From NCBI GenBank assembly GCA_033763455.1, contig JANRKO010000011.1, positions 64,001 to 128,000 of the forward strand: a stretch of 64,000 nt of DNA, written 5' to 3'. Each line of letters starts with the position of its first letter. Position 1 is the first letter of the stretch. Source of the DNA: Polyangiaceae bacterium (GTDB lineage Bacteria > Myxococcota_A > Polyangia > Polyangiales > Polyangiaceae). Shown here one piece after another: positions 15,032 through 51,820 of the stretch. A model generated the notes under the pieces. That model was given only the letters and a program-made list of their open reading frames with translations, was not told the origin of the DNA and searched no databases. The position numbers were made by a program, and so were the translations under genes.

Positions 15032-15757
15032 CTACATACCGAAAGCCTCGTGGTCGAATAGCGAATATGCGCCGTTTTCAGCCACAATCACGTGATCGAG
15101 CAGAGGGACCCCGACCACCTCACACGCACGCCGAATGGCCAGGGTCATCACCACATCCTCCTGGCTCGGCTCGGGATCCCCGCTGGGATGGTTATGAACC
15201 AGCAGAATTGAGGTCCCCGCAGCTCTTAGCGCCGGCCTTAGCACGTCCTTCACCGTGAGGGCGCAGCCATGGACCCCACCGGATGCCACCCGCTGCAGAG
15301 CCTTCAGATGATTCTTGGCATCGAGCACCAACAACCACACTTCCTCATGCTCCAGGCCCGCGAGCCGCGGCCTGGCCCATTTTACCACCTGCTCAAACTG
15401 CGTGAACCTGAAGAGCTCTGGCACTGGCTCGCGAAAGGTTGACCGTCTTCCGAGCTCTAGCGCGGCAGCGATGCAGGCGGCCCGCGTCTCACCAAGGCCG
15501 GACATGGCAAGCAACGAGTGAAGCCCTTGGGAGGCAATACCCTGCACGCCGCCGTAGGTTTCAAGAAGCGCCACCGAACGCGCTAGGAGCTTCGGCTCCC
15601 GCGACCTGCGACCAAGCAACAATGCGAGCAGCTCGTGATCCCCAAGGGACTCCACCCCGTAGAGGAGCGTCCGTTCATAGAGGGATGGATTTTCACGCGC
15701 GGGCGGAGATGACTTTGGAGCCGAAGGGGACTGCGAAGAAGCGAGAGAGAGCATCAT
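15032..15757 (-). CDS. radC: RadC-family JAB-domain protein
   Basis: ERTLLYGVESLGDHELLALLLG, HhH GLGETRA, LVHNHPSGDPEPSQED, LLDHVIV. Confidence 0.95.
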   Translation of the reverse strand: MMLSLASSQSPSAPKSSPPARENPSLYERTLLYGVESLGDHELLALLLGRRSREPKLLARSVALLETYGGVQGIASQGLHSLLAMSGLGETRAACIAAALELGRRSTFREPVPELFRFTQFEQVVKWARPRLAGLEHEEVWLLVLDAKNHLKALQRVASGGVHGCALTVKDVLRPALRAAGTSILLVHNHPSGDPEPSQEDVVMTLAIRRACEVVGVPLLDHVIVAENGAYSLFDHEAFGM

Positions 15758-15766
15758 CGCGCTTCA

Positions 15767-15875
15767 GCACGAAGTGTGCCGGCACTGAAGCGCCGGAACT
15801 TAGGGCGAAACCCAGAGCGGCTACGTTGGCGAAAACGGCCAGGTGTCGGTGATGGACGGATGGCTCAGGTTGCGA
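15767..15875 (-). promoter_or_regulatory. sigma-54 promoter (CGGCACA-CTTC-GTGC) with upstream conserved boxes, for radC
   Basis: GG-N10-GC spacing at 15767-15781; boxes shared with 16849-16973 and 30165-30258. Confidence 0.65.
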
Positions 15876-15896
15876 GTGAAGGGAACTCTTCAAAGT

Positions 15897-16787
15897 TCAA
15901 CTCAAAACCTGTTCCAAGGTGGCGGCCGTAAGCACTCGCTCAGCAAAGCGCTCCAGATCGTCTGGCGAAGCTGTTCTTACGCGATCGGCCAGAGCCTGCT
16001 CAATGTGACCGAAACGCAACGTGAGCTGCTTCAAGACGACTTCAGCTTTGCCCTCGGCTTTGCCCCGAGCCTCGCCCTCGGCCTCGCCCTCGGCACGACC
16101 GATGGAGATGTAACGGCGAGCGAACTCACTCTGAAATTCGTATTTGGCTGGGTCCATGGCTTGGAGGGCCTTTCTGGCGGCGGTCCCTAGATTGGCTAGG
16201 ATGAGATCAGTGTAAAGGACGGATAGTTCCTCGTCGAGGCCGATGCTGGCAGCCATAGCAGCGAGGGCGATGCGGACGGATTTATCGGTGTTGGTGCTCT
16301 TGCCGTGAGCCATGGCGGACAGGACGGCCAGCTCGGGATCCGCCTTGGCAACGTTTTCGTCTTCGACTTCGGGGACGCCCGATGGGCCCAAGACAAGCGG
16401 CGTGAATGTGTTGCCGCCGCCAAGGTGAATGGGCTTTGCGGCCCACTTGGCTACCGACTCGGTGGACGTGACTACGAGGAGGACGACAGGGCACCGAATC
16501 CGCGTTCGGAGATGAACCGAATAGCCTGGCCAGACGAACAACTTATCGTCGTCTGGTTGAAGCTGTGCTTCTACTACTATGCCAAGCACGGGCTTATTGT
16601 CGTAGAGGAGGACGACGAGATCGGCGTGATACTGAACGGGCTGAAGCTCCGTGAATTCGCCGGACTCAACTCGTATTTCTGTGTACTCGGGAAGCGTTAC
16701 GTGAAGAGCGTCGCGAAGCAGCTCGGGGGCGAGCGCGGGCCGATTGCGGAATAACAGGAGCAGAGCTTCGTGAAGGACAGAGGGAAT
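15897..16787 (-). CDS. Rpn-like PD-(D/E)XK nuclease with C-terminal DUF4351-like domain (start uncertain, possibly damaged)
   Basis: ADLVVLL..GIVVEAQL nuclease core, AEGEAEGEARGKAEGKAE repeats, LKQLTLRFG..LERFAERVL tail. The expected 'MPS..HE' start reads ATT-CCC-TCT at 16787. Confidence 0.8.
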   Translation of the reverse strand: MPSVLHEALLLLFRNRPALAPELLRDALHVTLPEYTEIRVESGEFTELQPVQYHADLVVLLYDNKPVLGIVVEAQLQPDDDKLFVWPGYSVHLRTRIRCPVVLLVVTSTESVAKWAAKPIHLGGGNTFTPLVLGPSGVPEVEDENVAKADPELAVLSAMAHGKSTNTDKSVRIALAAMAASIGLDEELSVLYTDLILANLGTAARKALQAMDPAKYEFQSEFARRYISIGRAEGEAEGEARGKAEGKAEVVLKQLTLRFGHIEQALADRVRTASPDDLERFAERVLTAATLEQVLS

Positions 16788-16848
16788 TTGAGCGCATTGC
16801 CGCGCCTCACTGCGCCGAACGGCGAGTGCGGGAGCCTCCAGTGCTTCA

Positions 16849-16973
16849 GCAGGAAGCGTGCCCGCTCCGAGGGGGCACAAACTGAGCGCCCTTCTGGGAA
16901 ACCGGGGACAGCCACGTTGGCGAAACTAGCCAAGTGTCGGCGCTGGACGGTCAGGCCAAAGCCAAGGTTGCGA
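16849..16973 (-). promoter_or_regulatory. sigma-54 promoter (GGGCACG-CTTC-CTGC) with upstream boxes; diverged copy of the radC promoter region
   Basis: Shares GCTTCAGCA, ACGTTGGCGAAA, GTGTCGG-N3-TGGACGG and AGGTTGCGA with 15761-15875, in the same order. Confidence 0.7.
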
Positions 16974-17004
16974 TCCCCCTTGCTTTCGTCGGGAGCTTGC
17001 GTCA

Positions 17005-17028
17005 ATGTACAACCAAATGGTTGTACAT
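17005..17028. promoter_or_regulatory. ArsR operator palindrome ATGTACAACCA-AA-TGGTTGTACAT
   Basis: Perfect 11-bp arms overlapping the start of the ArsR gene. Confidence 0.75.
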
Positions 17029-17376
17029 GTAAGCGCTTCTTCGGCGAGCATTGACCGGATTTTCCGGGCAATGGCCGACCCCACTCGCCGGGACATTGTC
17101 GAGCGGGTGCTGAAGGGCGAGCAATCCGTGAGTGCCCTCGCGGATCGCTACCAGATGTCGTTCGCCGCCGTGCAGAAGCATGTCGCCGTGCTCGAACGTG
17201 CGGGCCTTGCCAAAAAACATGCACGTGGCCGCGAGCGGCTCGTGAGCGCCAACATAGGCTCTATTCGCAAAGTTCGTAATCTGCTCGACCGCTACGAGGC
17301 GCTTTGGAGGGACCGCATCGATCGCCTCGACGCCCTACTTGCTGAGCCAGAGCACCCCTCCACCACGAAGGAATAA
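17017..17376 (+). CDS. ArsR/SmtB-family transcriptional regulator
   Basis: IFRAMADPTRRDI, SVSALA..MSFAAVQKHVAVLERAGL..GRE; start at 17005 or 17017. Confidence 0.93.
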   Translation: MVVHVSASSASIDRIFRAMADPTRRDIVERVLKGEQSVSALADRYQMSFAAVQKHVAVLERAGLAKKHARGRERLVSANIGSIRKVRNLLDRYEALWRDRIDRLDALLAEPEHPSTTKE

Positions 17377-17380
17377 CCCC

Positions 17381-18370
17381 ATGCCCATCACCAACGTAGT
17401 TAAAGATCCAAGTGCCCTCACCATGACCGTGACCGCTGAGTTTCCTGTGCCGGTGCGCCGCGTGTGGGATGCCTACGCTGATCCGCGCAAGCTGGAGCGT
17501 TTTTGGGGTCCGCCAACCTGGCCAGCTACCTTCACCCGCCACGACATGGCCGTGGGAGGGCGCTCCGAATACACCATGCGGGGCCCCGACGGCACAGCCT
17601 CCTCAGGCTATTGGGAATTTATCGGAGTGAATGCACCGCACAGCTTCGAGGTCAAAGACGGTTTTCTCAGGGCCGATGGCACACCGAATAACGAGCTCCC
17701 TAGCATGCGCATGGTCTTTCGCTTCGAAGAAACGGCAAAAGGCTCACGCGTTGTAACTACCACTTTCTTTCCGTCAGCCGAGGCGCTGCAACAGCTTCTT
17801 GACATGGGCATGGAGGAAGGCATGCGCCAGGCGATGGGTCAGATGGACTCCGTGCTCACCGATCTCGCATTGTTTGCGGCCGGAAGCGGAACCGAGGTGC
17901 AACAGCTCCCGGGCACTCAGGTACGCATCAGCCGCGTGATCCGCGGGAGCGTGGAGCAGGTGTGGCGTGCGCACCACGATCCGGATTTGCTCAAACGCTG
18001 GATGCTTGGCCCGGAAGGTTGGTTAATGCCGGTGTGCCAACCAGCGGCAAAGGTGGGCGACAGTTATCGCTACGAATGGGCGCCCGTTGCGGGAGGCCCA
18101 GCTGAAGGCCAGCCGGGTTTTGCATTCGAGGGTCAGCTCCTCGCATCAGAGCCCCCCTATCGCGCCGTAACCACCGAACGCATGGTGGGCATGCCTGGCC
18201 CAGGTGCTACCAATGAGCTAACGCTCACCGCGCTGCAAGAAGGCACGCTCATGTCATTGCTCATCACCTACCCAAGCGCCGAGCTGCGCGACATGGTGCT
18301 GGGCACCGGCATGGCCTCTGGCATGGAAGCAAGCTACGCGCGGCTGGAATCGATCCTGGGAGTGGGGTGA
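17381..18370 (+). CDS. Tandem SRPBCC (AHSA1-like) domain protein
   Basis: Two repeats, VWDAYADPRKLERFWGP and VWRAHHDPDLLKRWM; AAGGA RBS. Confidence 0.92.
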   Translation: MPITNVVKDPSALTMTVTAEFPVPVRRVWDAYADPRKLERFWGPPTWPATFTRHDMAVGGRSEYTMRGPDGTASSGYWEFIGVNAPHSFEVKDGFLRADGTPNNELPSMRMVFRFEETAKGSRVVTTTFFPSAEALQQLLDMGMEEGMRQAMGQMDSVLTDLALFAAGSGTEVQQLPGTQVRISRVIRGSVEQVWRAHHDPDLLKRWMLGPEGWLMPVCQPAAKVGDSYRYEWAPVAGGPAEGQPGFAFEGQLLASEPPYRAVTTERMVGMPGPGATNELTLTALQEGTLMSLLITYPSAELRDMVLGTGMASGMEASYARLESILGVG

Positions 18371-18410
18371 AGGGCAGCCAACGCTAGCTCAAGTATGCTA
18401 GGCTGGGCGG

Positions 18411-18596
18411 ATGCATTCAGGCGATGTCCATGGGCGAAAGCGGAGCAAAGTGGCTGCCGAGGGGCGCCGCGTGGAGCTTGAAGCGGTGCTAAAGATGACT
18501 CCGCTGGAGCGCGCCCAGCTAGCTTTGCGTCTCGGGCGTCGTGATCGCGCGGTCAGGGAGCTTGCCCTCGCGCGCGATCTCGGCGCGAGAAAATAG
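18411..18596 (+). CDS. Small basic protein, putative partner (antitoxin-like) of the downstream nucleotidyltransferase
   Basis: 61 aa with an 'MTPLERAQLA' helix, 2 nt upstream of the NTase gene. Confidence 0.5.
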   Translation: MHSGDVHGRKRSKVAAEGRRVELEAVLKMTPLERAQLALRLGRRDRAVRELALARDLGARK

Positions 18597-18598
18597 GT

Positions 18599-19162
18599 AT
18601 GGACCGTACATTCGAATTGGCTGAGCGCGTTCGCTCTATCTTGGAACAGAAGGGGCACAGCTGCGCCGTGATCGGTGCCGTGGCGCTCGCAGCCTGGGGT
18701 TACCCGCGCAGCACGTTGGACATCGACCTAGCGGTGAACTTGGATCCGCGTGAACTCAGCGAAATCGGTAGAGCCATTGAGTTAACAGGCGACGGACTTA
18801 GAACTCGGCTCTTGCTTCCCGATGCGGAGGATCCGCTGGGTGGGACGCTAACAATTACCGGAGATGAGAGCGACCCGGTGCAGCTCGTGAATTTCTACAA
18901 TCCTCACCGCGGCCGAAATGTACTCGGGCGTTCGCTACTTCTTGCCGCCAAGCCCAAGATCATCGGGGAGCTCGCCGTCGTTGATCTGCCGCACCTAGTA
19001 GCCACCAAGCTCTACGCAGGTGACTTGGCCGACCGCGTGGATGTGCTTGAAGTGTTGCGGCGCAATCCAGAATGCAATCTTGAGGAAGTGGCCAACACCT
19101 GCACGCGCTTAGGGCTCGGTGAAGCTTGGAGCGCGATCGCCTCAGACCTGGGAGAACGCTGA
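18599..19162 (+). CDS. Pol-beta-superfamily nucleotidyltransferase (DUF6036/AbiEii-like)
   Basis: AVIGAVALAAWGYPRSTLDIDL signature; LVATKL..G...DRVD C-terminal motif. Confidence 0.8.
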   Translation: MDRTFELAERVRSILEQKGHSCAVIGAVALAAWGYPRSTLDIDLAVNLDPRELSEIGRAIELTGDGLRTRLLLPDAEDPLGGTLTITGDESDPVQLVNFYNPHRGRNVLGRSLLLAAKPKIIGELAVVDLPHLVATKLYAGDLADRVDVLEVLRRNPECNLEEVANTCTRLGLGEAWSAIASDLGER

Positions 19163-19164
19163 TT

Positions 19165-19890
19165 CTATTCAGACGCGCCTGAGGCCGCTACGTCGAATTC
19201 GTGAAGCAGACCCACGAGGATGATGGCAGTTTGATTGCGCATGGAGATCGTGTCGGACATTACGCTGTCTCCGTTTGCACGGGCGGAGCCTGCGCGCGGA
19301 TAATGCAGCTCACCGCCTGTGAGATAGCGGAAGCCGAACGTCAGGAACGTGAGATGCTCTGGCCCATGTGAGCGGATCTGAATCTGCGCTCCGAGGCCGA
19401 ACCCGTAGCTGCGCAAATAGGACAACGACGTCTCGTGTGGTGGGATCGTCAATCGCCGGGCAGTGTCGTCCAGCATTTCGCGTTCAACCCCGATGTTAAC
19501 TCGGCTAACCCCCAGTAAGCCTTCTACGAACGGCCGAAGGCGAGAACTGAACGGCTGAAACCGAGCATGGAGATGGCTGTTGAGGGAGTAAGAATCCAGC
19601 GTGGTCCTGAGGGCGCCACTTGGAACATCTGCGATTCGCTCAATGAGAGTGCTTCCTTCGTAAAAATAGGACACAGACCCCAGAAAGGCGAGCGGCACGC
19701 CGGTAAACCGTGCTCCGAGGCCGACACCGAACCCAAGGCCAGGCCCCAACTGCAGCTGGGCTTGCTTGCCCGGGTGCCACGCAGCAAGCACATCGGCCTG
19801 CACGTCCGTCTTAACGTCTGCCGAGCTAACGCCACACCACAAGAAGGAACCACTTGCAGCCGCCGCTGCGAACCATCGTGAGGACCTCAT
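19165..19890 (-). CDS. Small outer-membrane beta-barrel protein, paralog A
   Basis: Signal peptide (SSA|D); HLHARFQPFSSRLRPFVEG, SYGFGLGAQIQ. Confidence 0.7.
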   Translation of the reverse strand: MRSSRWFAAAAASGSFLWCGVSSADVKTDVQADVLAAWHPGKQAQLQLGPGLGFGVGLGARFTGVPLAFLGSVSYFYEGSTLIERIADVPSGALRTTLDSYSLNSHLHARFQPFSSRLRPFVEGLLGVSRVNIGVEREMLDDTARRLTIPPHETSLSYLRSYGFGLGAQIQIRSHGPEHLTFLTFGFRYLTGGELHYPRAGSARANGDSVMSDTISMRNQTAIILVGLLHEFDVAASGASE

Positions 19891-19958
19891 GGACTTACGC
19901 ACCTTGCGCAGCTCAAACAGCGGGCGACAGGCGCCTTCTCGGATTAACACCATGATCT

Positions 19959-20669
19959 CTACATTTCCCCAAGGAATCCAAAGAGAATCGTGAAGGACTC
20001 ATAGCGGCTGGGCACAGTGTAGAACGTGAGAGCATTGCCGTTAACTCCGGCGGTGCCTTCCAGTGGGAAGCTCACCTCACCTCCCGAAAGTGAACGAAAC
20101 CCCAAGGTCAAGAAACTACGAGCGTAGACCTCATCTGGAGGCTGATTGAAGCCAATTTGGACCTGCACTCCCCCGCCAAATCCGTAGCTACCCAAATACG
20201 ATGCGTCGCTTTCATGGGTTGGGAGGATCAATTCCCCGCCGGAATTCTCTTCGATCTTCCGCTCGACTTCGATGCTAACCCGGCTTCCCCCCAGGGTGCC
20301 TTCGATGTACGGACGAATCCAAGAGTTGAACGGCTGAAAGCGGGCATGGAGATGAGCGTTGAAAAAGACCGTGCTGAAAGAAGTCGTGAGCCTCGCAGTT
20401 GGGATGTTGGCTATTCGCTCGCTAAACTCGCTGTCTTCGTAAACAATCGAGGACGCAGATAACCCCAAAACCAACGGAACCCCAACCAGGCGCACTCCCC
20501 CGTAAAGACCGCCACCGAAGCCCGGCCACGATCTATGCTGCGCCAGCTCGCCGGCAGGAAACTCGGCCATGGCATCCAATTGAACGTTCCCCCTAACCTC
20601 TGCCGAGCTAACCGCTGACCACGCGAAGACGATACATGCAACCGCCAATGCGAGTGTTGAGAACCTCAT
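19959..20669 (-). CDS. Small outer-membrane beta-barrel protein, paralog B
   Basis: Signal peptide (SSA|E); HLHARFQPFNSWIRPYIEG, SYGFGGGVQVQ; clearly homologous to paralog A. Confidence 0.7.
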   Translation of the reverse strand: MRFSTLALAVACIVFAWSAVSSAEVRGNVQLDAMAEFPAGELAQHRSWPGFGGGLYGGVRLVGVPLVLGLSASSIVYEDSEFSERIANIPTARLTTSFSTVFFNAHLHARFQPFNSWIRPYIEGTLGGSRVSIEVERKIEENSGGELILPTHESDASYLGSYGFGGGVQVQIGFNQPPDEVYARSFLTLGFRSLSGGEVSFPLEGTAGVNGNALTFYTVPSRYESFTILFGFLGEM

Positions 20670-20881
20670 GGGATGATGATGCCAGGCGCCCGGTGCCGCC
20701 TCATGCTCAAGTCGAGCTCGTACCATAAACTGCAGGCATTCCAAACCCAACCACCGCCGCTCGTGACCAACCCGGACATTGTACTCTGTTGGTCGATAAG
20801 TGCCAACGAGCACCAGTTTTCGCAGGGTTCAGGACACCGATCTCCAGCGCTCACATCCGCTCGCCGAACGCAAATCGCCTC

Positions 20882-21413
20882 CTACCTCGCCGGCAGCGCC
20901 GCCTCGTAAATTGCATCAACATCCAGATTCGCACCCACCGTTCAGCGCCACTTCGTGCGACCAAGCGTCACCGGTTCTGCGATACAACTCCATTTTCCGT
21001 TCAGTCTGCGAAACCAACAGGTATTCGCGCAAGGAAGGGATCGTGAAGTAGTGCTCGCGCTTCTCACCGCGATCGTAATCCTCTGTGCCCGGGCTCAACA
21101 CTTCGACAAGGAGAGTTGGATTGGTGGCGGTATTTCGACCGTCGGGATCAAACTCCATCGGCCCGCAAACGACTGAAACATCCGGGTAGGTGGCCAGGCC
21201 CGTCTCTAGCACCCGAACCCGCAGATCCGGGCTGTAAGCGCGGCACGGTTTGCCTTTCAGCTGGGCGTGGAGCTCTGCAGCAATTGCCAATGTATTAGCG
21301 GCATGCTCAGGCGTACCCCCTGCCATTCCGAAAATCTCGCCATTGAGGTATTCGTTCAAGAGATAGTCTTCATAGCTAGAGCGATGCCGGCGCATGGGAA
21401 GCGAGACCGTCAG
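20882..21413 (-). pseudogene. Uma2 (DUF820) endonuclease pseudogene
   Basis: EYLNGEIFGMAGGTPEH, YPDVSVVCG, NPTLLVEVLSPGT..YDRGEK..Y..IPSLREYLLV. The C-terminus (VGANLDVDAIYEAALPAR*) lies in another frame after ~20935. Confidence 0.8.
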
Positions 21414-21598
21414 TGTTCTTGTTTAGCGCATGTTGGCCCGTCTGGCCGTCCTCGACAGCCTTAGGCGAGGCAACCGCCTCAGACTTTCGAGGCTCGACGT
21501 CCTCATCGCATTGTTCTGCGAAGTCGAGGGGATGATTACCACGGGTTCCAGGGGGAAATTTGTCCTCGCGGCACGCCTCTTGCTCTACTTCTCAGGTG

Positions 21599-22312
21599 AT
21601 GCGTGGAGTGCTGCCGTGGATGTTGCTGGTAGCCGGTGTTATGCTGGTGAGCTCACGAGCCCATGCGCGCGGAGTAGACGCAAATGCTTATGGTTTTGCC
21701 GAGGTTCCTAAGGCCGCCACACCCGCGCCGCTCCGAAGCCTAATTCGAGTACGAAGTGGGATTGGGCTGCTCTACACGAACGCGGACTATGACATTTCCT
21801 TCATGCATAGCCCCACGAGTTACACCGTTGCCAAGTACGCGCAGCCGCGCACTGGCCTGGCCTACACGCTAGATCTTACCCTTGGGTTGGGCCTAGATCG
21901 CAGAGGGTTGGCGTGGTTGGGCGCCAGCTACAGGGGGCATTGGCGCCCATCCGTTCCAGACGTTTCCGTGGAACGCGCGATCGGACTGCACTCTAGGTTC
22001 ACGCTTGTTCAAGAAGCTTTAGTGATATCAGAGCTCAATATTCCCAAAATACAGTGGACGGTCGGCCCAAAGCTTGGAGTGGGCTTGCTCCGAGAATACC
22101 TAGGCCCTTACCGCGTCACCGCTAGCAACACGGCCTATGTATTGGGTGCGTCGCTCGCGAAAAAATTCCCACTCCGAGGCCCCTGGCATGCGAGCATTGC
22201 GCTAGATGCCACGGTGCATAACCTGAACCCGTACGTACTACTTGGGAGCCGCCTTGTAGAAGCTGGGACCGTCAGGCTCCTGTTTGGCATCGAGCGTCGC
22301 TCGGCCCAATAG
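21599..22312 (+). CDS. Putative outer-membrane beta-barrel protein
   Basis: Signal peptide ending AHA and amphipathic strands. Confidence 0.55.
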   Translation: MRGVLPWMLLVAGVMLVSSRAHARGVDANAYGFAEVPKAATPAPLRSLIRVRSGIGLLYTNADYDISFMHSPTSYTVAKYAQPRTGLAYTLDLTLGLGLDRRGLAWLGASYRGHWRPSVPDVSVERAIGLHSRFTLVQEALVISELNIPKIQWTVGPKLGVGLLREYLGPYRVTASNTAYVLGASLAKKFPLRGPWHASIALDATVHNLNPYVLLGSRLVEAGTVRLLFGIERRSAQ

Positions 22313-22738
22313 CATCAGGCGACGCCGCCCGAGCCGATACGATACAAACAACATCGGCAGCGCCAAAAGATCGGTAGGATCGGCCCATGTCCTATGGGGC
22401 GTTCCCAAACCCCAATCAAGCGCACGCACGTATGCCTCCGCCCCCCAGGCAGAAAGCTCGGTAACGCTGAAGATCATTCCCGTCAGCCCAACGCAAACCA
22501 AAAGCACCTTTCGAGACGGAACGTGAACGCCGAAAAGTACTTTCTGAACAACTTCTGCGCAACCTTGGAGCAAAAGCGGAAAGAACACAAGCCCCGCAAA
22601 ATCCGAAAGCTTTCCGGTAACCCAACTCGGTTGAATATGCTTGAAGATGTGATCGTTGATGAACAATATAGCCATCGAGGCGATCACCCACGGGTCCAGC
22701 AGCGCTCCGCCCGCAACGTTGGCGGCACGCCCGTTCAT
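22238..22738 (-). CDS. Conserved membrane protein (NDH..K....W.TGKLSDFAGL...DPTDL family)
   Basis: Recognisable motif in a multi-TM protein; coupled to the upstream lipoprotein. Confidence 0.75.
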   Translation of the reverse strand: MNGRAANVAGGALLDPWVIASMAILFINDHIFKHIQPSWVTGKLSDFAGLVFFPLLLQGCAEVVQKVLFGVHVPSRKVLLVCVGLTGMIFSVTELSAWGAEAYVRALDWGLGTPHRTWADPTDLLALPMLFVSYRLGRRRLMLLGRATLDAKQEPDGPSFYKAAPK

Positions 22739-23199
22739 TCCTCGGCCTCGAACTTGAGATAAATGGGATCGCTGGGGTTGCAGCCAGCCTCCGCGGTTGC
22801 GAACGCTTTGAAGCTAACATCAGCCGTGGAGCTCAGCGTGCTCGCGACCACCGTAACCCGGGTACATCCCTGGCACAGCTCGCGGCGTGCGGGAAGCGAA
22901 CTGCCTGCCGTAAGAAGCAGGGCTCCTGAGTTTGTAGAGGAGAAGTCTGCATCTGCGGTCCACTCGATGCGGACCTCCGTTCCTTTGGGGGCCGCAACGT
23001 CGAACTCAACGCTGATCGTAGCCAACCCGTTCGACGTAACTCGGAAGGTTCGGGAAACTGACGACTGCGACGTCAATGTCAGAGTTTGGGCCGGGAGCTC
23101 GGCTGCCGCCTCCGCACTGAGGCAACTGGTTCCAAGCGAGGAGTAAGCGCCAAATGCGATCACCAGGCAGGCTAGCGTCTGGTAGGTTGCAGGTTTCAC
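22735..23199 (-). CDS. Hypothetical lipoprotein
   Basis: Signal ending LGTSC; ATGA overlap with the next gene. Confidence 0.6.
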   Translation of the reverse strand: MKPATYQTLACLVIAFGAYSSLGTSCLSAEAAAELPAQTLTLTSQSSVSRTFRVTSNGLATISVEFDVAAPKGTEVRIEWTADADFSSTNSGALLLTAGSSLPARRELCQGCTRVTVVASTLSSTADVSFKAFATAEAGCNPSDPIYLKFEAEE

Positions 23200-23212
23200 G
23201 CGCCGATGATGT

Positions 23213-23227
23213 GCAAGAGCTGTGCCC
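23213..23227 (-). promoter_or_regulatory. Candidate sigma-54 promoter GGGCACA-GCTC-TTGC
   Basis: Correct -24/-12 spacing; the predicted start site (~23201) nearly coincides with GTG 23199. Confidence 0.5.
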
Positions 23228-23254
23228 TATGGCAACAGTGGCTCCGCCCCACCC

Positions 23255-23995
23255 CTACTCCACCCTCTGCGGCTCCCCCTCCGGCAAAGCAGCTAAAAGC
23301 TCCGCAAGTGCCGCTTCCACGCCCTCGGCATCGTCTCCATCAAGCGTGACTTTCGTCTTGTACGTAGCATCGAACCATTTCGGGTAGGAGCCAATTTCGA
23401 CGGTAGGGTGGGCCGCTACTACGCTATCGAGAAGCGGCTTCAGTTTTACTTCATCGATCAGCGTATAAATCTGCCGCGTGATTATTGGCTTCGGGCCGCG
23501 CACGTGGCCGCGCACGACTGCGAGCTTCATGCGAAAAAGCTCTGGAACCCCTGGCAATATCCAAACGTTGCGCATCACGACGGTGGGCCAACGCACGCCT
23601 TCGATGGTCTTTAGCTCGGCACCTTCCGGCACTAGAGCCATACGCCGCGCGGCTTCCAGATCATTCGGGTATACCTGGGCCAGCATAGCTTCGAGCTCCG
23701 GGTGCACCGGCACACTCACCCCAAAGGCCACGCCAACGGCATCCAGCGTGAGATCATCGTGAGTGGGCCCCACGCCGCCGCTCGTGAATACAACGTCGAA
23801 CTGAGCGCTCTGGATCCGCACTTCTTCAGCTATCGTCTCAATGACATCGGGCACCACCACTACGCGTTCCAGGCGGATGCCGAGTGCGCGCAAAGTTCCG
23901 GCCAGAGCGAAGAGGTTGGCCTCACATACTTTTCCGTTCAGAAGTTCGTTGCCCACCAAGATCGCCGAAGCGCGCGTGGCAAGCTGGGCCTTCAT
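23255..23995 (-). CDS. CinA-like molybdopterin-binding domain protein (N-terminal CinA/FAD hydrolase type)
   Basis: VGNELLNGKV.EAN, VFTSGGVGPTHDDLT, LPGVP, IGSYP. Confidence 0.9.
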   Translation of the reverse strand: MKAQLATRASAILVGNELLNGKVCEANLFALAGTLRALGIRLERVVVVPDVIETIAEEVRIQSAQFDVVFTSGGVGPTHDDLTLDAVGVAFGVSVPVHPELEAMLAQVYPNDLEAARRMALVPEGAELKTIEGVRWPTVVMRNVWILPGVPELFRMKLAVVRGHVRGPKPIITRQIYTLIDEVKLKPLLDSVVAAHPTVEIGSYPKWFDATYKTKVTLDGDDAEGVEAALAELLAALPEGEPQRVE

Positions 23996-24297
23996 TCGTG
24001 ATCCAGCGTTTTTACGATGGGCTGACCTTGCTCATCGATAGACAGCAACTGTTCGACTCTCTTTTCTGCTAAATCGAGCCGAGCTTGCGAAGCGCGCGCC
24101 AAGCGTACGCCTTCTTCGAACAGCGCGAGCGATGCATCCAACGGCAACTCACCATCTTCGAGCTTATCGACAATCTCTGAAAGGCGCGCAATCGAGGCCT
24201 CAAAGGAACCCCCGGCTTCTGCTTGCTCCGCGTGGCCGCCTTCAGCGCTTGCTTTTGCGACAGCTTCTTCCTGCGACTGTTTAGTGCGTTTGCTCAT
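23992..24297 (-). CDS. xseB: Exodeoxyribonuclease VII small subunit
   Basis: SFEASIARLSEIVDKLEDGELPLDASLALFEEGVRL...AEKRVEQL. Confidence 0.95.
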   Translation of the reverse strand: MSKRTKQSQEEAVAKASAEGGHAEQAEAGGSFEASIARLSEIVDKLEDGELPLDASLALFEEGVRLARASQARLDLAEKRVEQLLSIDEQGQPIVKTLDHE

Positions 24298-26174
24298 GAG
24301 CCGTGGGTACCAAAAGACTTCGGGGGAAGGTGCTTGAATTTTGTTGGGGGCGCAAGGCGGAGCGAATAGGGCCCTGGAACTGCGTTCGGAACCACCACAA
24401 AGCCGTCTGCGTCAGGTATTACGGGCAAGACCAATCCGGGGGCAATACGCACGCCGATAGCGTCACCGGGCTTCACCCCCTCCGTAAAGATCCACAAGGG
24501 AAAACTCCCTCCGGTGCATGGCCGGGGCAGCGGGCCTTTGAGCGCCTGCTCCGCGATAGCCCGAACGCGAGCATCGGCATCGAGCGCGGCCACTTTTGAA
24601 AACCACGCAGGCGCCCACTCGGGGGAACCGAGGCCCATGCCGGTTACGATCGCCTGCCGGACGGTGGGGTCAACTTCGGAGGCGTAAGCCGCTGTGAGCC
24701 AAGCATAACGACTGGGCTCGTCGCTCTGAGCCAGGCCCAACAAAGCACTGGCGCGCACATCGGCATCGGCGCTGTGCAGTAGCTGCTCGAAGAGGGTTTG
24801 TTGGGGGTTGTAGCGGGCCCCCAACACGAGCGCTGCAAGTGGAGCACTACCGCTCGCTTCTAGGAGCTCTACAAGAGCATCCGTTGGGACCTTCGACCAA
24901 ACTTCGCGGTACTGCAAGCACGCTTGAAGGTGTGTGGGCAAGGACGCGGTGGCGGTAGCAAAGAACCCAGAAACCGCCTTCAAACAAGCGCTCCCCGTGG
25001 GAAATCCGTGCTTATCCTGCTCCGCAGGATCTGCCGACTGGATGAGGAGCGCTCTCTTCCACAAGCGTTGTTCCCAACCTTTCGTTGCAACTAAGCGAGC
25101 CTGCAGGGTGCGCTCGGCGGCAACATTGTGCGCCGTAGCTAGCGCGTAAGCCACAAGCGCGAGCTCTGTACGTCTCCGTGTTGACTTGAGGAGCCTATTA
25201 TTGGCCTCTTCAGAATTGAGGGAAGCGATCAAGCGGCGCACTCGCAGCGCTTGCGAAGGTGGAGCTTTCAACAGCAACTGAATGAGCAACGTTGCTAGGC
25301 GCGGAGATCGCGTGCGCTCCGCTAGCTCCAAGCCGAGCTCGACATCTTCTTCACGCCCGAGAAGTTCCTGAACGAGTGGTTCGGATTCGGCGGGTGCCAA
25401 ACGAGCAAGAATTTCGGCAGCCGCACTTCGCAACCTTGGGGCGGAGCTCCCTGCCCATTGTCGAGCCAAACCAAGCGGCTCCGCGCTACCGAGCTTAACC
25501 ATTGCCACCGCAGCTTCCGTGCTCACTTCCATGCGCGCCGTTTGCACGAGCGCACGCAGGACCGCAAGATCTCTGGAACTTCCGAGCTCGCCCACTAAAG
25601 CCACCGCAGCCGCAGGGGAGGTCTTGGATGTTAACATGTTGAGCGTGCGCGGCGGATGCGCCAAAAGAGCCGTGCGAGCGATGTCTGCTAGGGGGCCTTC
25701 ATGGCCCAACGCCGAGAGCAATAACCCGATCGCGCGTGAACTTCCCGAGTGGCTGAGCGCGAGAGCTGCGGACATTTGAACTTGGCGCAGTGAGGTGGAC
25801 TCGCCACCGGAAGCGTCTGAAAGTATGCGATACAAGAAGGCCGCAACCCTCGGCTCCGCCGCAAACGGTGCGAGCGAAAATACCAGAGCCCGCTTTTCTG
25901 GTGGCTCCAGTGATTCCACCTTATCCACCATTGTGAGCAGCCGTTCACGCACCTCGGGTAGTAGGGGTAGGCCCAAACGCTCAAAGCCGCGGCGCCGCTC
26001 TCCACTTTCCGATGAACGCAGAAGCTTGGCAATCGCAGCTTCGCCGAAACGCTCTTGTATCGGGAGCGATTCGGCCTCTGCAGGCATAGCAGCCGAAAGC
26101 ACACAAACGCTCAAGCACCAGGCGCTCACGCGCAGAGTTAGCCAGCGCTGTCGAAGCCTTCGACGTTCACTCAT
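24294..26174 (-). CDS. Exported HEAT-repeat protein
   Basis: Signal peptide; repeats such as LLHSADADVRASALLGL and EVDPTVRQAI; start ATG 26174. Confidence 0.75.
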   Translation of the reverse strand: MSERRRLRQRWLTLRVSAWCLSVCVLSAAMPAEAESLPIQERFGEAAIAKLLRSSESGERRRGFERLGLPLLPEVRERLLTMVDKVESLEPPEKRALVFSLAPFAAEPRVAAFLYRILSDASGGESTSLRQVQMSAALALSHSGSSRAIGLLLSALGHEGPLADIARTALLAHPPRTLNMLTSKTSPAAAVALVGELGSSRDLAVLRALVQTARMEVSTEAAVAMVKLGSAEPLGLARQWAGSSAPRLRSAAAEILARLAPAESEPLVQELLGREEDVELGLELAERTRSPRLATLLIQLLLKAPPSQALRVRRLIASLNSEEANNRLLKSTRRRTELALVAYALATAHNVAAERTLQARLVATKGWEQRLWKRALLIQSADPAEQDKHGFPTGSACLKAVSGFFATATASLPTHLQACLQYREVWSKVPTDALVELLEASGSAPLAALVLGARYNPQQTLFEQLLHSADADVRASALLGLAQSDEPSRYAWLTAAYASEVDPTVRQAIVTGMGLGSPEWAPAWFSKVAALDADARVRAIAEQALKGPLPRPCTGGSFPLWIFTEGVKPGDAIGVRIAPGLVLPVIPDADGFVVVPNAVPGPYSLRLAPPTKFKHLPPKSFGTHGS

Positions 26175-27078
26175 CGTTCGTCCAACCCAGGCCAAAAAAC
26201 GCGCGCATTTGGGGATTTCCTGGGCGAGAACCAAGCGGCAATTGGCACCCGGCGTTGACGGAAAGCGAGCCCATGCGGCGGCTAACACCGAGCCCAATGA
26301 GCGCGCCGTTAGCTCCTGAAGAAGCGAGCCCCGAAAGGCCGGACGCGCCTGAGAATTCGAGCCCAATACGCGTCCCACCAGATTGATCCCAGCCAAGGAG
26401 AATGGGGCGAAATTGCAAACCCAGGTTCCAGCGCAGTTCGTTGCCATAGCGCACCTGGAGCAATGTGGGCTCTGTCCCACGCAGGCGCACGCCCGCTCCG
26501 GCTCGCACTTCAAACACCATCAAATGGAGGGCGGACAGCAACCCCAGCTCCCCCTCGGGTGCTCCGCTCGATAAAAACGCTGCTTTAGAACCGGTGGGCA
26601 AGGCAACAATCCCACGCGACCCGAGCGTGAACCCCCCGACGTCACCAGGCTTGAGCCACGTTGTCTTGTAACCGAGTTCCAAGTTTCCGGTTGCGGTACT
26701 GGGTAGCTTCGGGCGATCGATGACCTCAGAAAGATCGTGTCCTGATTCGTTTAAAATGAAAGGCAGCGCCACCGAGAGCTCTAGGCGATTCAAGACGCCG
26801 AGCGCTAGCGCGTAATCCGTGAACACGCGGTCGGCGATGAGAGCAAACTCCTCGCCCCGAGCAACGTTATGAAGCACGAGAGGCTTTCTGGCATAACCCA
26901 TCCAAACGTTGGCCCGCAGGGCGCCGGGGGCAAGCGCCTCGGGTGAAAGTGACTGCACAAGCCCATCGCTCGCCGGAGGCAATGGAGCCTGCCCCAGATT
27001 GATGGCATCGCGATCGGCGTGGGCACGCCCGGAACCGAGCAGAAGCCCGAGGCTCAGAAGGACAGCAATCCGGCGCAT
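26167..27078 (-). CDS. Outer-membrane beta-barrel (resembles the N-terminal barrel of myxobacterial OmpA/TraB-type proteins, no OmpA domain)
   Basis: Signal peptide; YARKPL, RLELSVALP, ALPTG; C-terminal RAFFGLGW. Confidence 0.65.
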   Translation of the reverse strand: MRRIAVLLSLGLLLGSGRAHADRDAINLGQAPLPPASDGLVQSLSPEALAPGALRANVWMGYARKPLVLHNVARGEEFALIADRVFTDYALALGVLNRLELSVALPFILNESGHDLSEVIDRPKLPSTATGNLELGYKTTWLKPGDVGGFTLGSRGIVALPTGSKAAFLSSGAPEGELGLLSALHLMVFEVRAGAGVRLRGTEPTLLQVRYGNELRWNLGLQFRPILLGWDQSGGTRIGLEFSGASGLSGLASSGANGALIGLGVSRRMGSLSVNAGCQLPLGSRPGNPQMRAFFGLGWTNDE

Positions 27079-27167
27079 GGGGTCGGGGCCAGACTACCCG
27101 GGCTCGGCCCAAGCTTGCAAAACTTGCCCCGAGGCCCCGATCAGCGTAACCGCTTCAGCAAGAACCC

Positions 27168-28439
27168 ATGGATGCGATTCAGGTCCGCGGCACACGCCGA
27201 CTCTCAGGCTCAATCCGAGTTGGGGGTGCAAAAAACGCCGCCCTTCCCATCTTGTGCGCCACGCTGCTTTCGGAGGGCGAAAGCCTCCTTCGAAATGTCC
27301 CCGCGCTGCGCGACATTCACACCACAGGCGCCCTGTTGCGGTTCCTCGGCAGAACGGTCGAGGTCACGCCACCGACCCTCACCGTGCGAGCTGAAACGGG
27401 CAACATGCGCCCCGAAGCTCCGTACGAGCTGGTTCGCCAGATGCGAGCAAGCGTTCTGGTGTTGGGGCCGCTCGTGGCCCGTTACGGGCGCGCGCGAGTC
27501 TCCTTGCCCGGCGGTTGCGCGATTGGAGCACGCCCAGTCGACCAGCACCTCCGCGGGTTGGAAGCTTTGGGTGCGAAGATCCGCGTAGACCACGGCTACA
27601 TTGTTGCTGAAGCTGGCCGCTTGCGTGGCACCGAAATCGTCTTCGACATGCCCACGGTAACAGGCACCGAAAACATCATGATGGCGGCAGCCCTCGCCAA
27701 AGGAAAATCTGTTCTGGTTAACTGCGCTCGCGAACCAGAAGTGGAAGAACTCGGCAGGGTGCTAAACAAGATGGGCGCCAAGGTGGAAGGCGCTGGCACC
27801 AGCGTAATCCATATCGAAGGCAGGGATGCACTCGATCCATTTGATCATGCGGTGATCGCCGATCGCATTGAGGCCGGAACCTTCTTGGCGGCTGTCGGCG
27901 CGGCCGGCGGTGATGTGCTCCTGGAATATGCGCCCTTCGACGATCTCGAACCTGTAATCTACAAGCTGCGCCAAGCTGGGGTTGAAATCGAGCGCGAAGG
28001 CGAACACGTGCGTGTCCGACGTGAAGGCCCATTAAAGCCGCGGGATGTGACCACAGCGCCCCACCCCGGCTTCCCGACAGACATGCAGGCACAGTTCATG
28101 GCGCTCATGTGTTCGGCTGAAGGTAAGAGCGTGCTCACCGAAACAATCTTCGAGAATCGCTTCATGCACGTTCCTGAGCTCAGCCGCATGGGTGCAGATA
28201 TCGTGACCCACGGCAACACGGCCATTGTTCAAGGTGTAAAGAGCCTCTCGGGTGCGAGCGTGATGGCCACCGATCTCCGAGCCAGCGCGTCCCTCGTAAT
28301 CGCGGGCCTGGTCGCCGATGGCGAGACCACCGTACGCCGCGTGTACCACCTCGATCGCGGTTACGAACGCATCGAAGAAAAGCTAAAAGGCGTGGGCGCC
28401 GACATCGAACGCATCAAGCTTGAGGACCACGACTCTTGA
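27168..28439 (+). CDS. murA: UDP-N-acetylglucosamine 1-carboxyvinyltransferase
   Basis: [57 protein letters not shown]. Confidence 0.98.
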
Positions 28440-29065
28440 AACCGATCACGATAGCGATTCCCAAAGGCCGCGTTACCCAAGCGCTCGCGCCGCTTTTTCG
28501 CCACGCCGGCCTGGATACCTCGCCGCTTGATTCGGACGATCGGCGCCTGATTCGCTCCACGGACGACGAGAGCCTGCGCTTCCTTTTGTTAAAGCCCGAT
28601 GATGTGCCCACCTACGTGGAGTACGGTGCCGTGGATCTTGGCATCAGCGGTCGCGACGTACTTCTTGAACGCCGCTACGACCTCTACCAGCCGCTCGATT
28701 TGGGCGTCGGCAAATGTCGCATGATCGTGGCAGGCCCCAAGGGCCAAAAAGCTCCGCCCCTGCCGCGCATCGCTACCAAGTTCCCCCGCATCGCCGCCGA
28801 ACACTTCGCCAAGAAGGGCATCCAAGCCGAAATCATTTTCGTGCAAGGCTCAGTGGAGCTCGCCCCGCTTGTAGGCCTTTCTGATCTGATCGTGGATATC
28901 GCTGAATCCGGGAAAACCCTCGTGGAAAACGGACTTGAAGAGCAGGAGTTCATTTGCTCCATCTCCAGTGTCCTCGTGGCCAATCGGGCGCTTTATAAGC
29001 TCCGCCACGACACCATCGCCCCCGTTGTGGAGCGCCTGCGCAAGGCGGTTGAGTTGCTGGGGTAG
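28436..29065 (+). CDS. hisG: ATP phosphoribosyltransferase, short form
   Basis: [56 protein letters not shown]. Confidence 0.97.
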
Positions 29066-29120
29066 CGAAGGCCACCCCAAGCTTGCACATGGGGTACCCC
29101 CGAGCCCCCAGCGACTCGGC

Positions 29121-29804
29121 TCACGCCGCTGGCGGCGCATCCAGCACCACGAACGGCTCTATCTTCTTCAGCCCCTTCACCCCGATACCCTTCACGCGCA
29201 GCAAATCCGTCACTTTGCGAAACCGACCCAGCCGGGCTCGCAAATCCAAAATCGATTGAGCGCGTTTAGGGCCCACTCCCGGCAGCTTGACGAGATCAGA
29301 AACCTCCGCCGCATTCAGCACCACTTTGCCGTCCGCGGTTTTCCCTGGCGTGGCACCTTCGCCCGTGCCAGCCGCACCAGCGGGTGCACTTGACGCAACT
29401 CCGGTTGAACCCGCTGCGCTTGACGCCCCCGAAGCCGCTGGACACGGCTGCACTTGGACGGGAACAGCCGAGGCCTGCCCGGCCTTTCCCTTCTCCGCCG
29501 ACGAACCTGCCAGCCACTCATTGTTGCCGCGTGCGTGCGCCTTATCCTCCGCGGCGCGTGCTTCAGCGATGGATAACACGCTCCGCCCTTCGTGCTGAAG
29601 CGACCAATACCCAAGCCCTGCAAAGCCCAGAATGGCAACGCCACCCAGCACCACTTTGGCCACCACGGGCACCCACACACTTTGAAAAAACGGGCGCTTT
29701 TTCGGCTCAAGCGGTGCTCCAAAAGTGCAGGGAGCCCCCCCGGGCTCCATGGCGCTCGTTCCACACTGTTCGGATTTCTCTTCAAATGTAAGTTCTTGCG
29801 ACAT
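29121..29804 (-). CDS. comEA: ComEA-family helix-hairpin-helix DNA receptor
   Basis: N-terminal TM, Ala/Gly linker, then VVLNAA...LVKLPGVGPKRAQSI...GRFRKVTDLLRVKGIG. Confidence 0.9.
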   Translation of the reverse strand: MSQELTFEEKSEQCGTSAMEPGGAPCTFGAPLEPKKRPFFQSVWVPVVAKVVLGGVAILGFAGLGYWSLQHEGRSVLSIAEARAAEDKAHARGNNEWLAGSSAEKGKAGQASAVPVQVQPCPAASGASSAAGSTGVASSAPAGAAGTGEGATPGKTADGKVVLNAAEVSDLVKLPGVGPKRAQSILDLRARLGRFRKVTDLLRVKGIGVKGLKKIEPFVVLDAPPAA

Positions 29805-29834
29805 CTCCCTGCTCCTTTGGAAGAAGGTTAACGC

Positions 29835-30077
29835 TTACGCGCTCTTGGCGATGGGCAACGTTTCCGCGCCTCCGCCAAATCCCCTTGCGGACGGCCCCGC
29901 AAATTCGTCCTTCGCTACGAAGTCCCGAATGTGGAGCTCACCGGTAATCGGCAGCGCCTCCAAGCGAACATTCAACGACCCATCGCGATTGACGAAAGCG
30001 ACCCCGACGCGATTCCAATATTTATTTTCATTGCGCTCGGTGATCACGTAAACGGCCTTCATTCTGCTGTTTTCCAT
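29835..30077 (-). CDS. Small conserved beta-strand protein (W.RVG.AF.NRDGS.N..L.ALP..G.L), possible ssDNA-binding protein
   Basis: Recognisable conserved motif; first gene of an operon with comEA. Function is inferred. Confidence 0.75.
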   Translation of the reverse strand: MENSRMKAVYVITERNENKYWNRVGVAFVNRDGSLNVRLEALPITGELHIRDFVAKDEFAGPSARGFGGGAETLPIAKSA

Positions 30078-30164
30078 CTCTACTATTTCCTAACTGTTTC
30101 TCTATTTGGTTGGTTGCTTCGAAGCGCATCCGGCGAACCTTCGTCGCTTCTGGGGAGCAACTTT

Positions 30165-30258
30165 GCGAAGCTCGTGCCAAGGCAAAAATGGGCGAAATCC
30201 GAGAGCAAGCAGCAGCTGGCCTGAAGTGGCGGACTGTCCAAAGTGGCCAAATGGACGG
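30165..30258 (-). promoter_or_regulatory. sigma-54 promoter (TGGCACG-AGCT-TCGC) with upstream boxes shared with the radC promoter
   Basis: -24/-12 at 30165-30179; GGGCGAAATCCGAGAGC and ATGGACGGA boxes. Confidence 0.65.
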
Positions 30259-46820: not shown

Positions 46821-46864
46821 AAAAAAAGTCGGCCGGGTCAGAGCTACAGTGCCCCAACCCGGCC
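46821..46864 (-). terminator. Intrinsic terminator 2
   Basis: GGCCGGGUUGGGGC-ACUGUA-GCUCUGACCCGGCC, then GAC and U7. Confidence 0.8.
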
Positions 46865-46950
46865 AGAGGAGCGTTGCGACACGCACCCTACAAAACGACT
46901 CCCCGACCGAAGACTTAACGGGGCCTGTCTTCGTTTTGGCTGCATGCAAC

Positions 46951-47050
46951 AAAAAAAAACAACGGCCCAGAGTGAGGGGGTACTCTGGACCGTTGAGAGG
47001 AAGCGACGGCTGCCCGGGCGGAGGGGGGGATCGCCAAGGCGGCCGTCCAA
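46951..47050 (-). ncRNA. sigma-54-dependent small RNA with two C-rich-loop hairpins (Pxr-like architecture)
   Basis: Promoter TGGCACG-GATA-CTGC; hairpin 1 loop AUCCCCCCCUC; hairpin 2 has a 14-bp stem, loop ACCCCCUC and a following U9; no credible ORF. Confidence 0.8.
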
Positions 47051-47061
47051 GCTCTTACTAA

Positions 47062-47076
47062 GCAGTATCCGTGCCA
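47062..47076 (-). promoter_or_regulatory. sigma-54 promoter TGGCACG-GATA-CTGC
   Basis: Perfect -24 box, -12 GC at the exact spacing, pointing into the sRNA. Confidence 0.85.
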
Positions 47077-47148
47077 TACTCGGATCTACGGTTATTGCGG
47101 TGTTTCCTTCGGGGCGAGGCGAGCGGGACCTTCCAACTTAGCAAATGA

Positions 47149-47166
47149 CGTTTCGTAAACGAAACG
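47149..47166. promoter_or_regulatory. Palindrome CGTTTCG-TAAA-CGAAACG, candidate enhancer-binding-protein site
   Basis: Perfect 7-bp arms about 100-115 nt upstream of the predicted sRNA start. Confidence 0.55.
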
Positions 47167-47329
47167 ATGACGGCACCGAGGAGCCAAACGTCTTCAGACT
47201 TCATGTGCGCGGTGAGCAGGTCCGAGCTCGGTCGGATTTGCATCAAGTGACCCGCCCGCCCACGAGCAAGCCAGGCGGCTTTCCTCCGTTAGAATAATCG
47301 AGCAAGATGGCCGGCAGCCGAGAATCGTT

Positions 47330-51508: not shown

Positions 51509-51820
51509 CTAGCGAAGGAGCGGAGAGCATCCCCGAACAAAGGCAAAAACCCGAAAGCTAAGTACTGTTTGGGCGAACGGGTGGCCGGGCCTGAGCCGCA
51601 AGGGGCGCCTGCCGACACCCTGTGAGCCTGGAGTTGCCCCTGGAAACAAGGCCTGGAAAAGCCCAGCTCATGCTAAAGCGGGGGCGGCCCAAGCTAACGC
51701 AGGAGCTTCCGCCCTAAGCTCCGGACCTCCTCAGTACCCCATCCAATGGCAAGGCACCCCTTCATGCTTCCTTCGACCACGCCAGAGCGCCCACCTCGTC
51801 GAACGTTCCGCCCCACCACC

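Follow-up and report, generated by a model that had tools for sequence, protein, structure and literature searches.

The control region of the radC gene in a Polyangiaceae bacterium has been duplicated around a neighbouring gene of the DUF4351/Rpn-like family. We observed this in a stretch of 64,000 nucleotides (nt), hereafter the window, which covers positions 64,001 to 128,000 of contig JANRKO010000011.1 (assembly GCA_033763455.1) and has a G+C content of 59.6%; all coordinates below count from its first letter. About 130 nt, comprising the radC control region, the ATG and approximately nine codons, lie on both sides of the Rpn-like gene, and the copy upstream of that gene has decayed. Both copies, and also the region upstream of an operon containing a comEA-like gene, carry boxes that resemble the -24/-12 promoters of sigma-54. 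The explanation that we favour combines the duplication with sigma-54 promoters and with an activator shared by radC and the comEA-like operon, and to this combination we assign a probability of about 0.5. The features at the radC locus are as follows.

15032 to 15757, minus strand: radC, encoding a JAB-domain RadC family protein of 241 amino acids (Pfam RadC, E = 1.1e-34; TIGR00608, 143.9 against a cut-off of 133.85)
15730 to 15859, minus strand: module A, the radC upstream region with the start codon and the first ~9 codons, the original copy of the repeat (from its local alignment with module B)
15897 to 16787, minus strand: the DUF4351/Rpn-like gene (Pfam DUF4351, E = 3.3e-08), within an open reading frame (ORF) at 15897-16880
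16809 to 16950, minus strand: module B, the copy that precedes the DUF4351/Rpn-like gene and has decayed (from its alignment with module A)

Modules A and B give a local alignment score of 56, compared with 19.8 ± 2.2 in shuffled sequences, and none of 300 shuffles reaches 56. Global alignment of A (130 nt) with B (142 nt) yields 98 matches, 30 mismatches and 16 gap columns, which corresponds to 76.6% identity over 128 aligned bases, and the duplication has sharp borders: the 60-nt flanks of the two copies are unrelated, with random-like identities of 18% and 30%. A repeat finder reported a 53-nt portion of the same pair (family D7) at 77% identity, the copies being 1,091 nt apart; they are direct repeats that bracket the DUF4351/Rpn-like gene. 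The repeat begins at CCGTCCA and extends 27 nt beyond the radC ATG at 15757. In copy B the ATGATG of radC reads CTGGAG, and relative to A there are five insertions (8, 1, 1, 2 and 2 nt) and one 2-nt deletion; B is therefore a decayed copy of the radC control region and 5' end. Because A and B are homologous over the whole module, they count as one observation and not as two promoters, and it follows from the duplication that the Rpn-like gene sits behind a second-hand radC promoter. Judged by homology, ATG 15757 is the true start of radC: the closest homologue (P0124, 62% identical at full coverage) has an N-terminus of equal length, and no alternative in-frame start codon occurs before residue 35. 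RadC has relatives at 62-67% identity, and those that bear names come from metagenome-assembled genomes (MAGs) of Polyangiaceae.

A preliminary description of this DNA had proposed three sigma-54 promoters with a common upstream box as a candidate competence regulon. A direct string check found every string that it quoted, including TGGACGG (read on the plus strand) at 15853, 16944 and 30252, which gives the claimed offsets of 72, 81 and 73 nt from the promoter boxes, and the GGGCGAAA-type second boxes at 15803, 30190 and 16895. The promoter boxes themselves are these.

15767 to 15781, minus strand: sigma-54-like -24/-12 box A, CGGCACACTTCGTGC
16849 to 16863, minus strand: sigma-54-like box B, the copy of box A, GGGCACGCTTCCTGC
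30164 to 30179, minus strand: sigma-54-like box C, TGGCACGAGCTTCGCA, which includes the 15-nt string TGGCACGAGCTTCGC at 30179-30165

Exactly 10 nt separate the GG (-24) from the GC (-12) at all three sites, so that the GG-N10-GC part of the claim stands, but the three promoters are not independent, B being the duplicate of A. Overall, we regard the observation of a shared promoter module as real in part and its interpretation as partly supported.

The location and the extended sequence of the boxes argue for sigma-54. The pattern GGCAC-N7-GC occurs at 22 sites in the window, 7 of them in the 12.5% of the DNA that is non-coding (P = 0.015). We scored five further positions of the extended consensus TGGCACG-N4-TTGCW, which we take to be that of sigma-54 promoters (the T that precedes GG, the R that follows GGCAC, the TT that precedes GC and the W that follows GC): the seven non-coding sites score 3, 3, 1, 4, 4, 4 and 4, the score of 1 belonging to an antisense site, while none of the 15 coding sites scores above 2 (Mann-Whitney p = 0.0009; when B is left out, 0.002). 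Base composition is equal in coding and non-coding DNA, and a simple consensus scan detected no sigma-70-like hexamers upstream of radC, the Rpn-like gene or the 80-codon ORF behind box C (orf80). With sigma-54 promoters that enhancer-binding proteins activate, of the NtrC-glnA and PilR-pilA type, the sites share the GG and GC 10 nt apart and the lack of sigma-70 hexamers nearby, and perhaps also the fit to TGGCACG-N4-TTGCW and an upstream dyad (described below) at ~90 nt from the predicted start; unlike the promoters of that type, they precede genes not known as sigma-54 targets (radC, orf80 and the comEA-like gene), and the radC transcript is predicted to be leaderless.

Several results weigh against this assignment. 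The extended consensus is our assumption. Matches to TGGCAC-N5-TTGC with up to 2 mismatches number 78, compared with 85.6 ± 9.2 in shuffles (A and B each have 2 mismatches, C has 1); the 16-nt consensus with up to 1 mismatch has 3 matches, box C among them, where 1.16 are expected; and GGCAC-N6-TGC has 7 matches in the window where 4.7 ± 2.4 are expected. The enrichment in non-coding DNA falls to P = 0.095 when B and the antisense site at 16874 are left out, and a Pfam scan of the 64 ORFs of the window found no Sigma54 domain and no enhancer-binding or activator domain. Given the non-coding location and the fit to the extended consensus, from which the sigma-54 reading of the preliminary description gains support, we consider it probable that the GGCAC-N7-GC boxes in non-coding DNA of the window are genuine sigma-54 promoters.

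The position of some boxes relative to start codons is unusual. Of the seven GGCAC-N6-TGC boxes, three have their end close to a supported start codon, at distances of 10, 13 and 14 nt upstream, where 0.036 would be expected over 60 starts (P = 8e-6), and no Shine-Dalgarno sequence lies between box and start.

15780 to 15752, minus strand: box and start codon of radC (ATG)
21570 to 21601, plus strand: box and start codon GTG 21596 or ATG 21599, opening a typical signal peptide
23226 to 23197, minus strand: box and start codon GTG 23199, opening a typical signal peptide

The gene list behind this count had been curated manually to retain 60 of 64 ORFs, and it counts against the result that one start was moved from 21560 (the longest ORF) to 21596 after the box had been seen. 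Counted from the C of the GC in box A, ATG 15757 follows after 10 nt and ATG 15754 after 13 nt, and the predicted transcription start of radC, ~15755, coincides with the ATG. Since sigma-54 would initiate ~12 nt past the GC at these boxes, the messenger RNAs (mRNAs) would be leaderless: the radC transcript would begin on its start codon, with the same geometry at two unrelated genes for secreted proteins. Transcription is predicted to start at ~21595 and ~23201 for these two, and at ~16837 behind box B. The boxes at the three start codons thus suggest leaderless sigma-54 transcripts. We know of no described case of leaderless transcripts from sigma-54 promoters, and a literature search at the level of titles and abstracts found none. 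Leaderless mRNA has been proposed in myxobacteria for a sigma-A promoter (PMC12754779); the likeness to our sites is a distance of at most 5 nt between predicted transcription start and start codon, whereas the promoter in that case is of the sigma-A type and the boxes here are of the sigma-54 type.

Whether radC shares an activator with the comEA-like operon depends on the relation between sites A and C, whose features we list together with those at B.

29835 to 30077, minus strand: orf80, 80 amino acids, the first gene after box C and a member of a conserved family of unknown function
29121 to 29804, minus strand: ComEA-like helix-hairpin-helix protein, 227 amino acids (Pfam HHH_3, E = 1.6e-15)
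15803 to 15818, minus strand: second box at A, GCTCTGGGTTTCGCCC, its TTTCGCC core ending 23 nt before GG
30190 to 30206, minus strand: second box at C, GCTCTCGGATTTCGCCC, its TTTCGCC core ending 12 nt before GG
15835 to 15859: dyad of 25 bp at A, imperfect (12 of 14 positions), CCGTCCA-N11-TGGCCGT, its centre 67 nt upstream of GG
30234 to 30258: dyad of 25 bp at C, imperfect (13 of 14 positions), CCGTCCA-N11-TGGACAG, its centre 68 nt upstream of GG
16926 to 16950: remnant of the dyad at B, CCGTCCA-N11-TGGCTAG, 11 of 14 positions

Box C has one mismatch to our assumed extended consensus and lies 88 nt before the orf80 ATG, which would leave a leader of 76 nt from a predicted start at ~30153. 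The orf80-comEA operon would have a -24/-12 box of its own, and a better one, together with a dyad that is nearly perfect and as far from the box as at radC. The orf80 family has 1105 cluster representatives at E ≤ 0.001, and its nearest Atlas clusters are mostly from Myxococcota. Sites A and C both carry the 9-mer TCCGTCCAT, 73 and 74 nt from GG, and have the 8-mer TTTCGCCC in common. Among 25,319 mock anchors (every fifth position of the window, excluding 200 nt around A, B and C), only 3 reach a 9-mer at equal offset (±1) from GGCAC together with a second 8-mer; corrected, the probability of such word sharing is ~0.0025 over the 21 other boxes and ~0.027 over the 231 box pairs. The CCGTCCA 7-mer is the left half of the dyad, and the 11-nt spacer is identical in A and C. 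With up to 2 mismatches, the dyad CCGTCCA-N11-TGGnCnG has 3 matches in the window where 0.33 are expected, and 1 of 100 shuffles reaches 3. Finally, 4 of the 22 boxes (A, B, C and the box at 21570), all of them non-coding, have CCGTCC in the 150 nt before them, and none of the 18 others does (P = 0.033, counting 3 independent sites).

The strongest alternative is that the resemblance of A and C arose by chance, the promoters of radC and orf80-comEA, sigma-54 or not, being unrelated and answering to different regulators, with only the A/B duplication real and the shared 9-mer, 8-mer and dyad mere coincidences singled out of 64 kb. Homology searches agree with it: nhmmer --max gave nothing between C and A or B at E ≤ 10 in either direction, the best local alignment of A with C lies elsewhere, the local score of B with C is reached by 165 of 300 shuffles, and the 8 windows closest to A or B in k-mer content do not include C (k = 6, 7, 8). 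In global alignment, 4.0% of 3000 random segments do as well as the A-C pair (p ~ 0.04) and 41.6% as well as the B-C pair (p ~ 0.42), the latter being chance level. By these comparisons, site C has no detectable homology with A or B. The sites under test were themselves the source of the dyad pattern, and its third match with up to 2 mismatches lies inside dnaK (3194), an equally good dyad; when 3 mismatches are allowed, 6 matches stand against 4.1 expected. The TGGACGG/CCGTCCA 7-mer occurs 15 times in the window, both strands counted, which is chance level when taken alone, and the word-sharing probability is ~0.03 once corrected over all box pairs. The second box stands at different distances from GG at A and C; the preliminary description had seen in these offsets a difference of about one helical turn, a claim that has only the comparison of A with C behind it and is not supported. 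Improbable coincidences also occur in this DNA, such as the 15 nt that module A has in common with the interior of the comEA-like ORF. What chance accounts for poorly is that the 9-mer stands at an equal offset from a box with a good score as a sigma-54 promoter, that the N11 spacer of the dyad recurs in both A and C, and that CCGTCC precedes 4 of the 22 boxes, all non-coding. We put chance resemblance somewhat short of even odds.

The 15-nt exact identity, CTTCGTGCTGAAGCG, is found at 29588-29602 (plus strand) and at 15775-15761 (minus strand), that is, between module A and the antisense strand of the comEA-like ORF, and it adjoins an inverted pair, GCTTCAGC/GCTGAAGC; it is probably due to chance.

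We regard the words and the dyad common to A and C as suggestive and not as established. A common enhancer, as the preliminary description had it, finds some support in that A and C share an imperfect dyad at equal distance from the box; B retains a remnant of it. If an activator is shared, one dimer of an enhancer-binding ATPase at the dyad (~-92) could reach the sigma-54 holoenzyme by looping and open the promoters of both radC and orf80-comEA; inspection by eye alone showed no IHF site between dyad and box. An activator shared in this manner we propose tentatively, at less than even odds.

The region upstream of the box at 21570 (21446-21490, plus strand), which we term site D, contains CCGTCC-T-CGACAG and TTTCG, words that also occur in modules A and B, and the window has only 3 instances of CCGTCC followed by CGACA within 10 nt. 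On reading the sequence, site D appears to lack the N11 dyad, and the gene downstream encodes a secreted protein of unknown family.

The preliminary description had gone further, to three independent sigma-54 promoters with a common enhancer that together would form a competence regulon of genes for DNA uptake and processing. In its favour, the boxes and the dyad are present as described, and a literature search at the level of titles and abstracts returned no description of direct sigma-54 promoters at comEA or radC. The known competence regulons, namely CRP-S/Sxy in Haemophilus (TfoX/QstR in Vibrio), ComK in Bacillus and SigX/ComX in streptococci, would resemble the present case in that comEA and radC would be switched on together through a common upstream site; they differ in sigma factor and mechanism, and here two operons are concerned whose co-induction is hypothetical. 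To our knowledge, all described competence regulons use sigma-70-family factors or CRP-like activators; indirect links to sigma-54 exist in the PilR/sigma-54 control of pilin and in LuxO/sigma-54 upstream of QstR in Vibrio. Against the regulon stand the descent of B from A, the ATT at the canonical start of the Rpn-like gene, whose homologues elsewhere have no such promoter (see below), and the restriction to two operons, radC and orf80-comEA. The window contains no other DNA-uptake genes besides radC and the ComEA-like gene, and its remaining sigma-54-like boxes precede genes for secreted proteins and a probable small RNA. The link to competence rests on two gene names: radC is tied to competence in some lineages only, and the C-terminal helix-hairpin-helix of the ComEA-like protein passes Pfam HHH_3 but falls below TIGR01259 (58.3 against 152.35) and TIGR00426 (46.8 against 53.1). 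A wider DNA-uptake regulon under sigma-54 and the dyad appears unlikely, and the full reading with three independent promoters is likewise unlikely.

A further gene with a competence-related name, 23255-24297 (minus strand), resembles the N-terminal part of CinA (competence/damage-inducible protein A family, below cut-offs). It lies in an apparent operon with xseB and with a lineage-specific gene for a HEAT-repeat protein, with neither dyad nor box upstream.

The Rpn-like gene itself looks like an incomer. Its protein passes the Pfam cut-off for the DUF4351 domain alone; TIGR01784 gives 17.5 bits (E = 0.0028), below the cut-off of 52.1. The family has more than 1766 homologues at ~58-72% identity, unlike the neighbouring HEAT-repeat protein (24294-26513), which has a single relative at 37% identity. 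At 16785-16787 the window has ATT where 14 of 14 aligned homologues from elsewhere have methionine; 13 of these start at that residue and 1 starts 7 residues upstream. Searching genome contigs with the Rpn-like protein gave five loci, of which one is spurious and two are partial.

L001: full copy of the Rpn-like gene, in a Myxococcales MAG
L002: internally deleted copy, located at 1465-2085, in a gammaproteobacterial MAG
L003 and L004: each a partial copy at the end of a contig, both in a Polyangiales MAG
L005: the spurious match

A profile of A and B, run with nhmmer --max over the window and the five fetched loci, found only A and B; a match with E = 2.4 upstream of the gene in L001 was judged to be noise. 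Likewise, tblastn with radC, comEA and orf80 found nothing in these loci. No flanking repeats surround the gene in L001 or L002, the full and near-full loci, and we therefore rejected such repeats as a general mark of Rpn-like insertion.

It could be supposed that the Rpn-like gene is the owner of the repeated module, which would be either the promoter of that gene or the terminal repeats of a mobile unit, with radC merely adjoining it. Direct repeats on both sides of the gene and the apparent horizontal spread of the family would fit this, but the radC start codon and first codons lie inside the repeat, and L001 and L002 have neither a similar module nor flanking repeats; we consider it very improbable. 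Because the loci elsewhere have no A/B-like module and no flanking repeats, we assign the module to radC and not to the incoming gene. Compared with the recombination-promoting nucleases of the Rpn (YhgA-like) type and other DUF4351 proteins, the gene shares the C-terminal DUF4351 domain, the weak TIGR01784 match, and a many-copy, patchy distribution with decayed copies; unlike at L001 and L002, a 130-nt duplication of host sequence flanks it here, and its score is below the NCBIfam cut-off. The family is widespread across metagenomes and MAGs, has apparently spread horizontally, and seems prone to decay and to disturbing assemblies.

That the module is a structured RNA leader such as the Rfam radC motif, an alternative raised in the preliminary description, is scarcely credible: an upstream position at radC and a 9-bp inverted repeat (GCGCTTCAG...CTGAAGCGC) enclosing box A would suit it, but covariance-model scans gave no match in 15600-17100 even at E ≤ 10 and none of the radC motif in the window at gathering score, which excludes any Rfam family for A and B, folding energies are unremarkable (z-scores -1.2, -0.5, +0.75 and -1.4), the hairpin is not kept in B, and in a comparison of two sequences compensatory changes are confined to 2 of the 26 pairs predicted.

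Some other features of the window deserve mention. Another sigma-54-like box, TGGCACGGATACTGCT at 47076-47061, lies in the gap 46830-47178 (minus strand). It is preceded by a perfect palindrome, CGTTTCG-TTTA-CGAAACG, and followed by two strong intrinsic terminators (46995-46960 with T9 and 46865-46830 with T7), beyond which a hydrolase gene begins at 46792. Sub-threshold Rfam matches at 46956-47105 are to the alphaproteobacterial small RNAs ar7 (E = 3e-4) and ar14, and the gap is a candidate for a sigma-54-driven small RNA or an attenuated leader. The gene for an ArsR-type regulator (17005-17376) begins within the palindrome ATGTACAACCAAATGGTTGTACAT (17004-17027), which is probably its own operator. 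At 51746-54253 (plus strand), a protein of 835 amino acids consists of ~14 cysteine-rich repeats of 123-129 nt that match the plant STIG1-like Pfam family (4.6e-84).

Under the favoured combination of duplication, sigma-54 promoters and a shared activator, the radC control region would be compact, ~100 nt in all, with a dyad at ~-92, two TTTCGCC words, a -24/-12 box and a transcript starting at the ATG. This region would have been duplicated when a DUF4351 gene arrived in front of radC, and the copy on the outside, now in decay, would be the one that stands before the incoming gene. The fullest form of this mechanism, in which one enhancer-binding protein and sigma-54 drive both radC and the comEA operon, sigma-54 produces leaderless mRNAs, and the incoming Rpn-like gene acquired a copy of the enhancer and promoter, we hold to be doubtful.

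The duplication is an example of a horizontally arriving gene that ends up behind a copy of a host promoter, and it carries a caution for motif scans, two of the three supposed regulon members being a single duplicated sequence. The three boxes that end at start codons make leaderless transcription from sigma-54 promoters a testable idea. Should radC and comEA indeed share a sigma-54 enhancer, competence-type genes of myxobacteria would answer to an ATP-dependent activator and to the signal that it receives.

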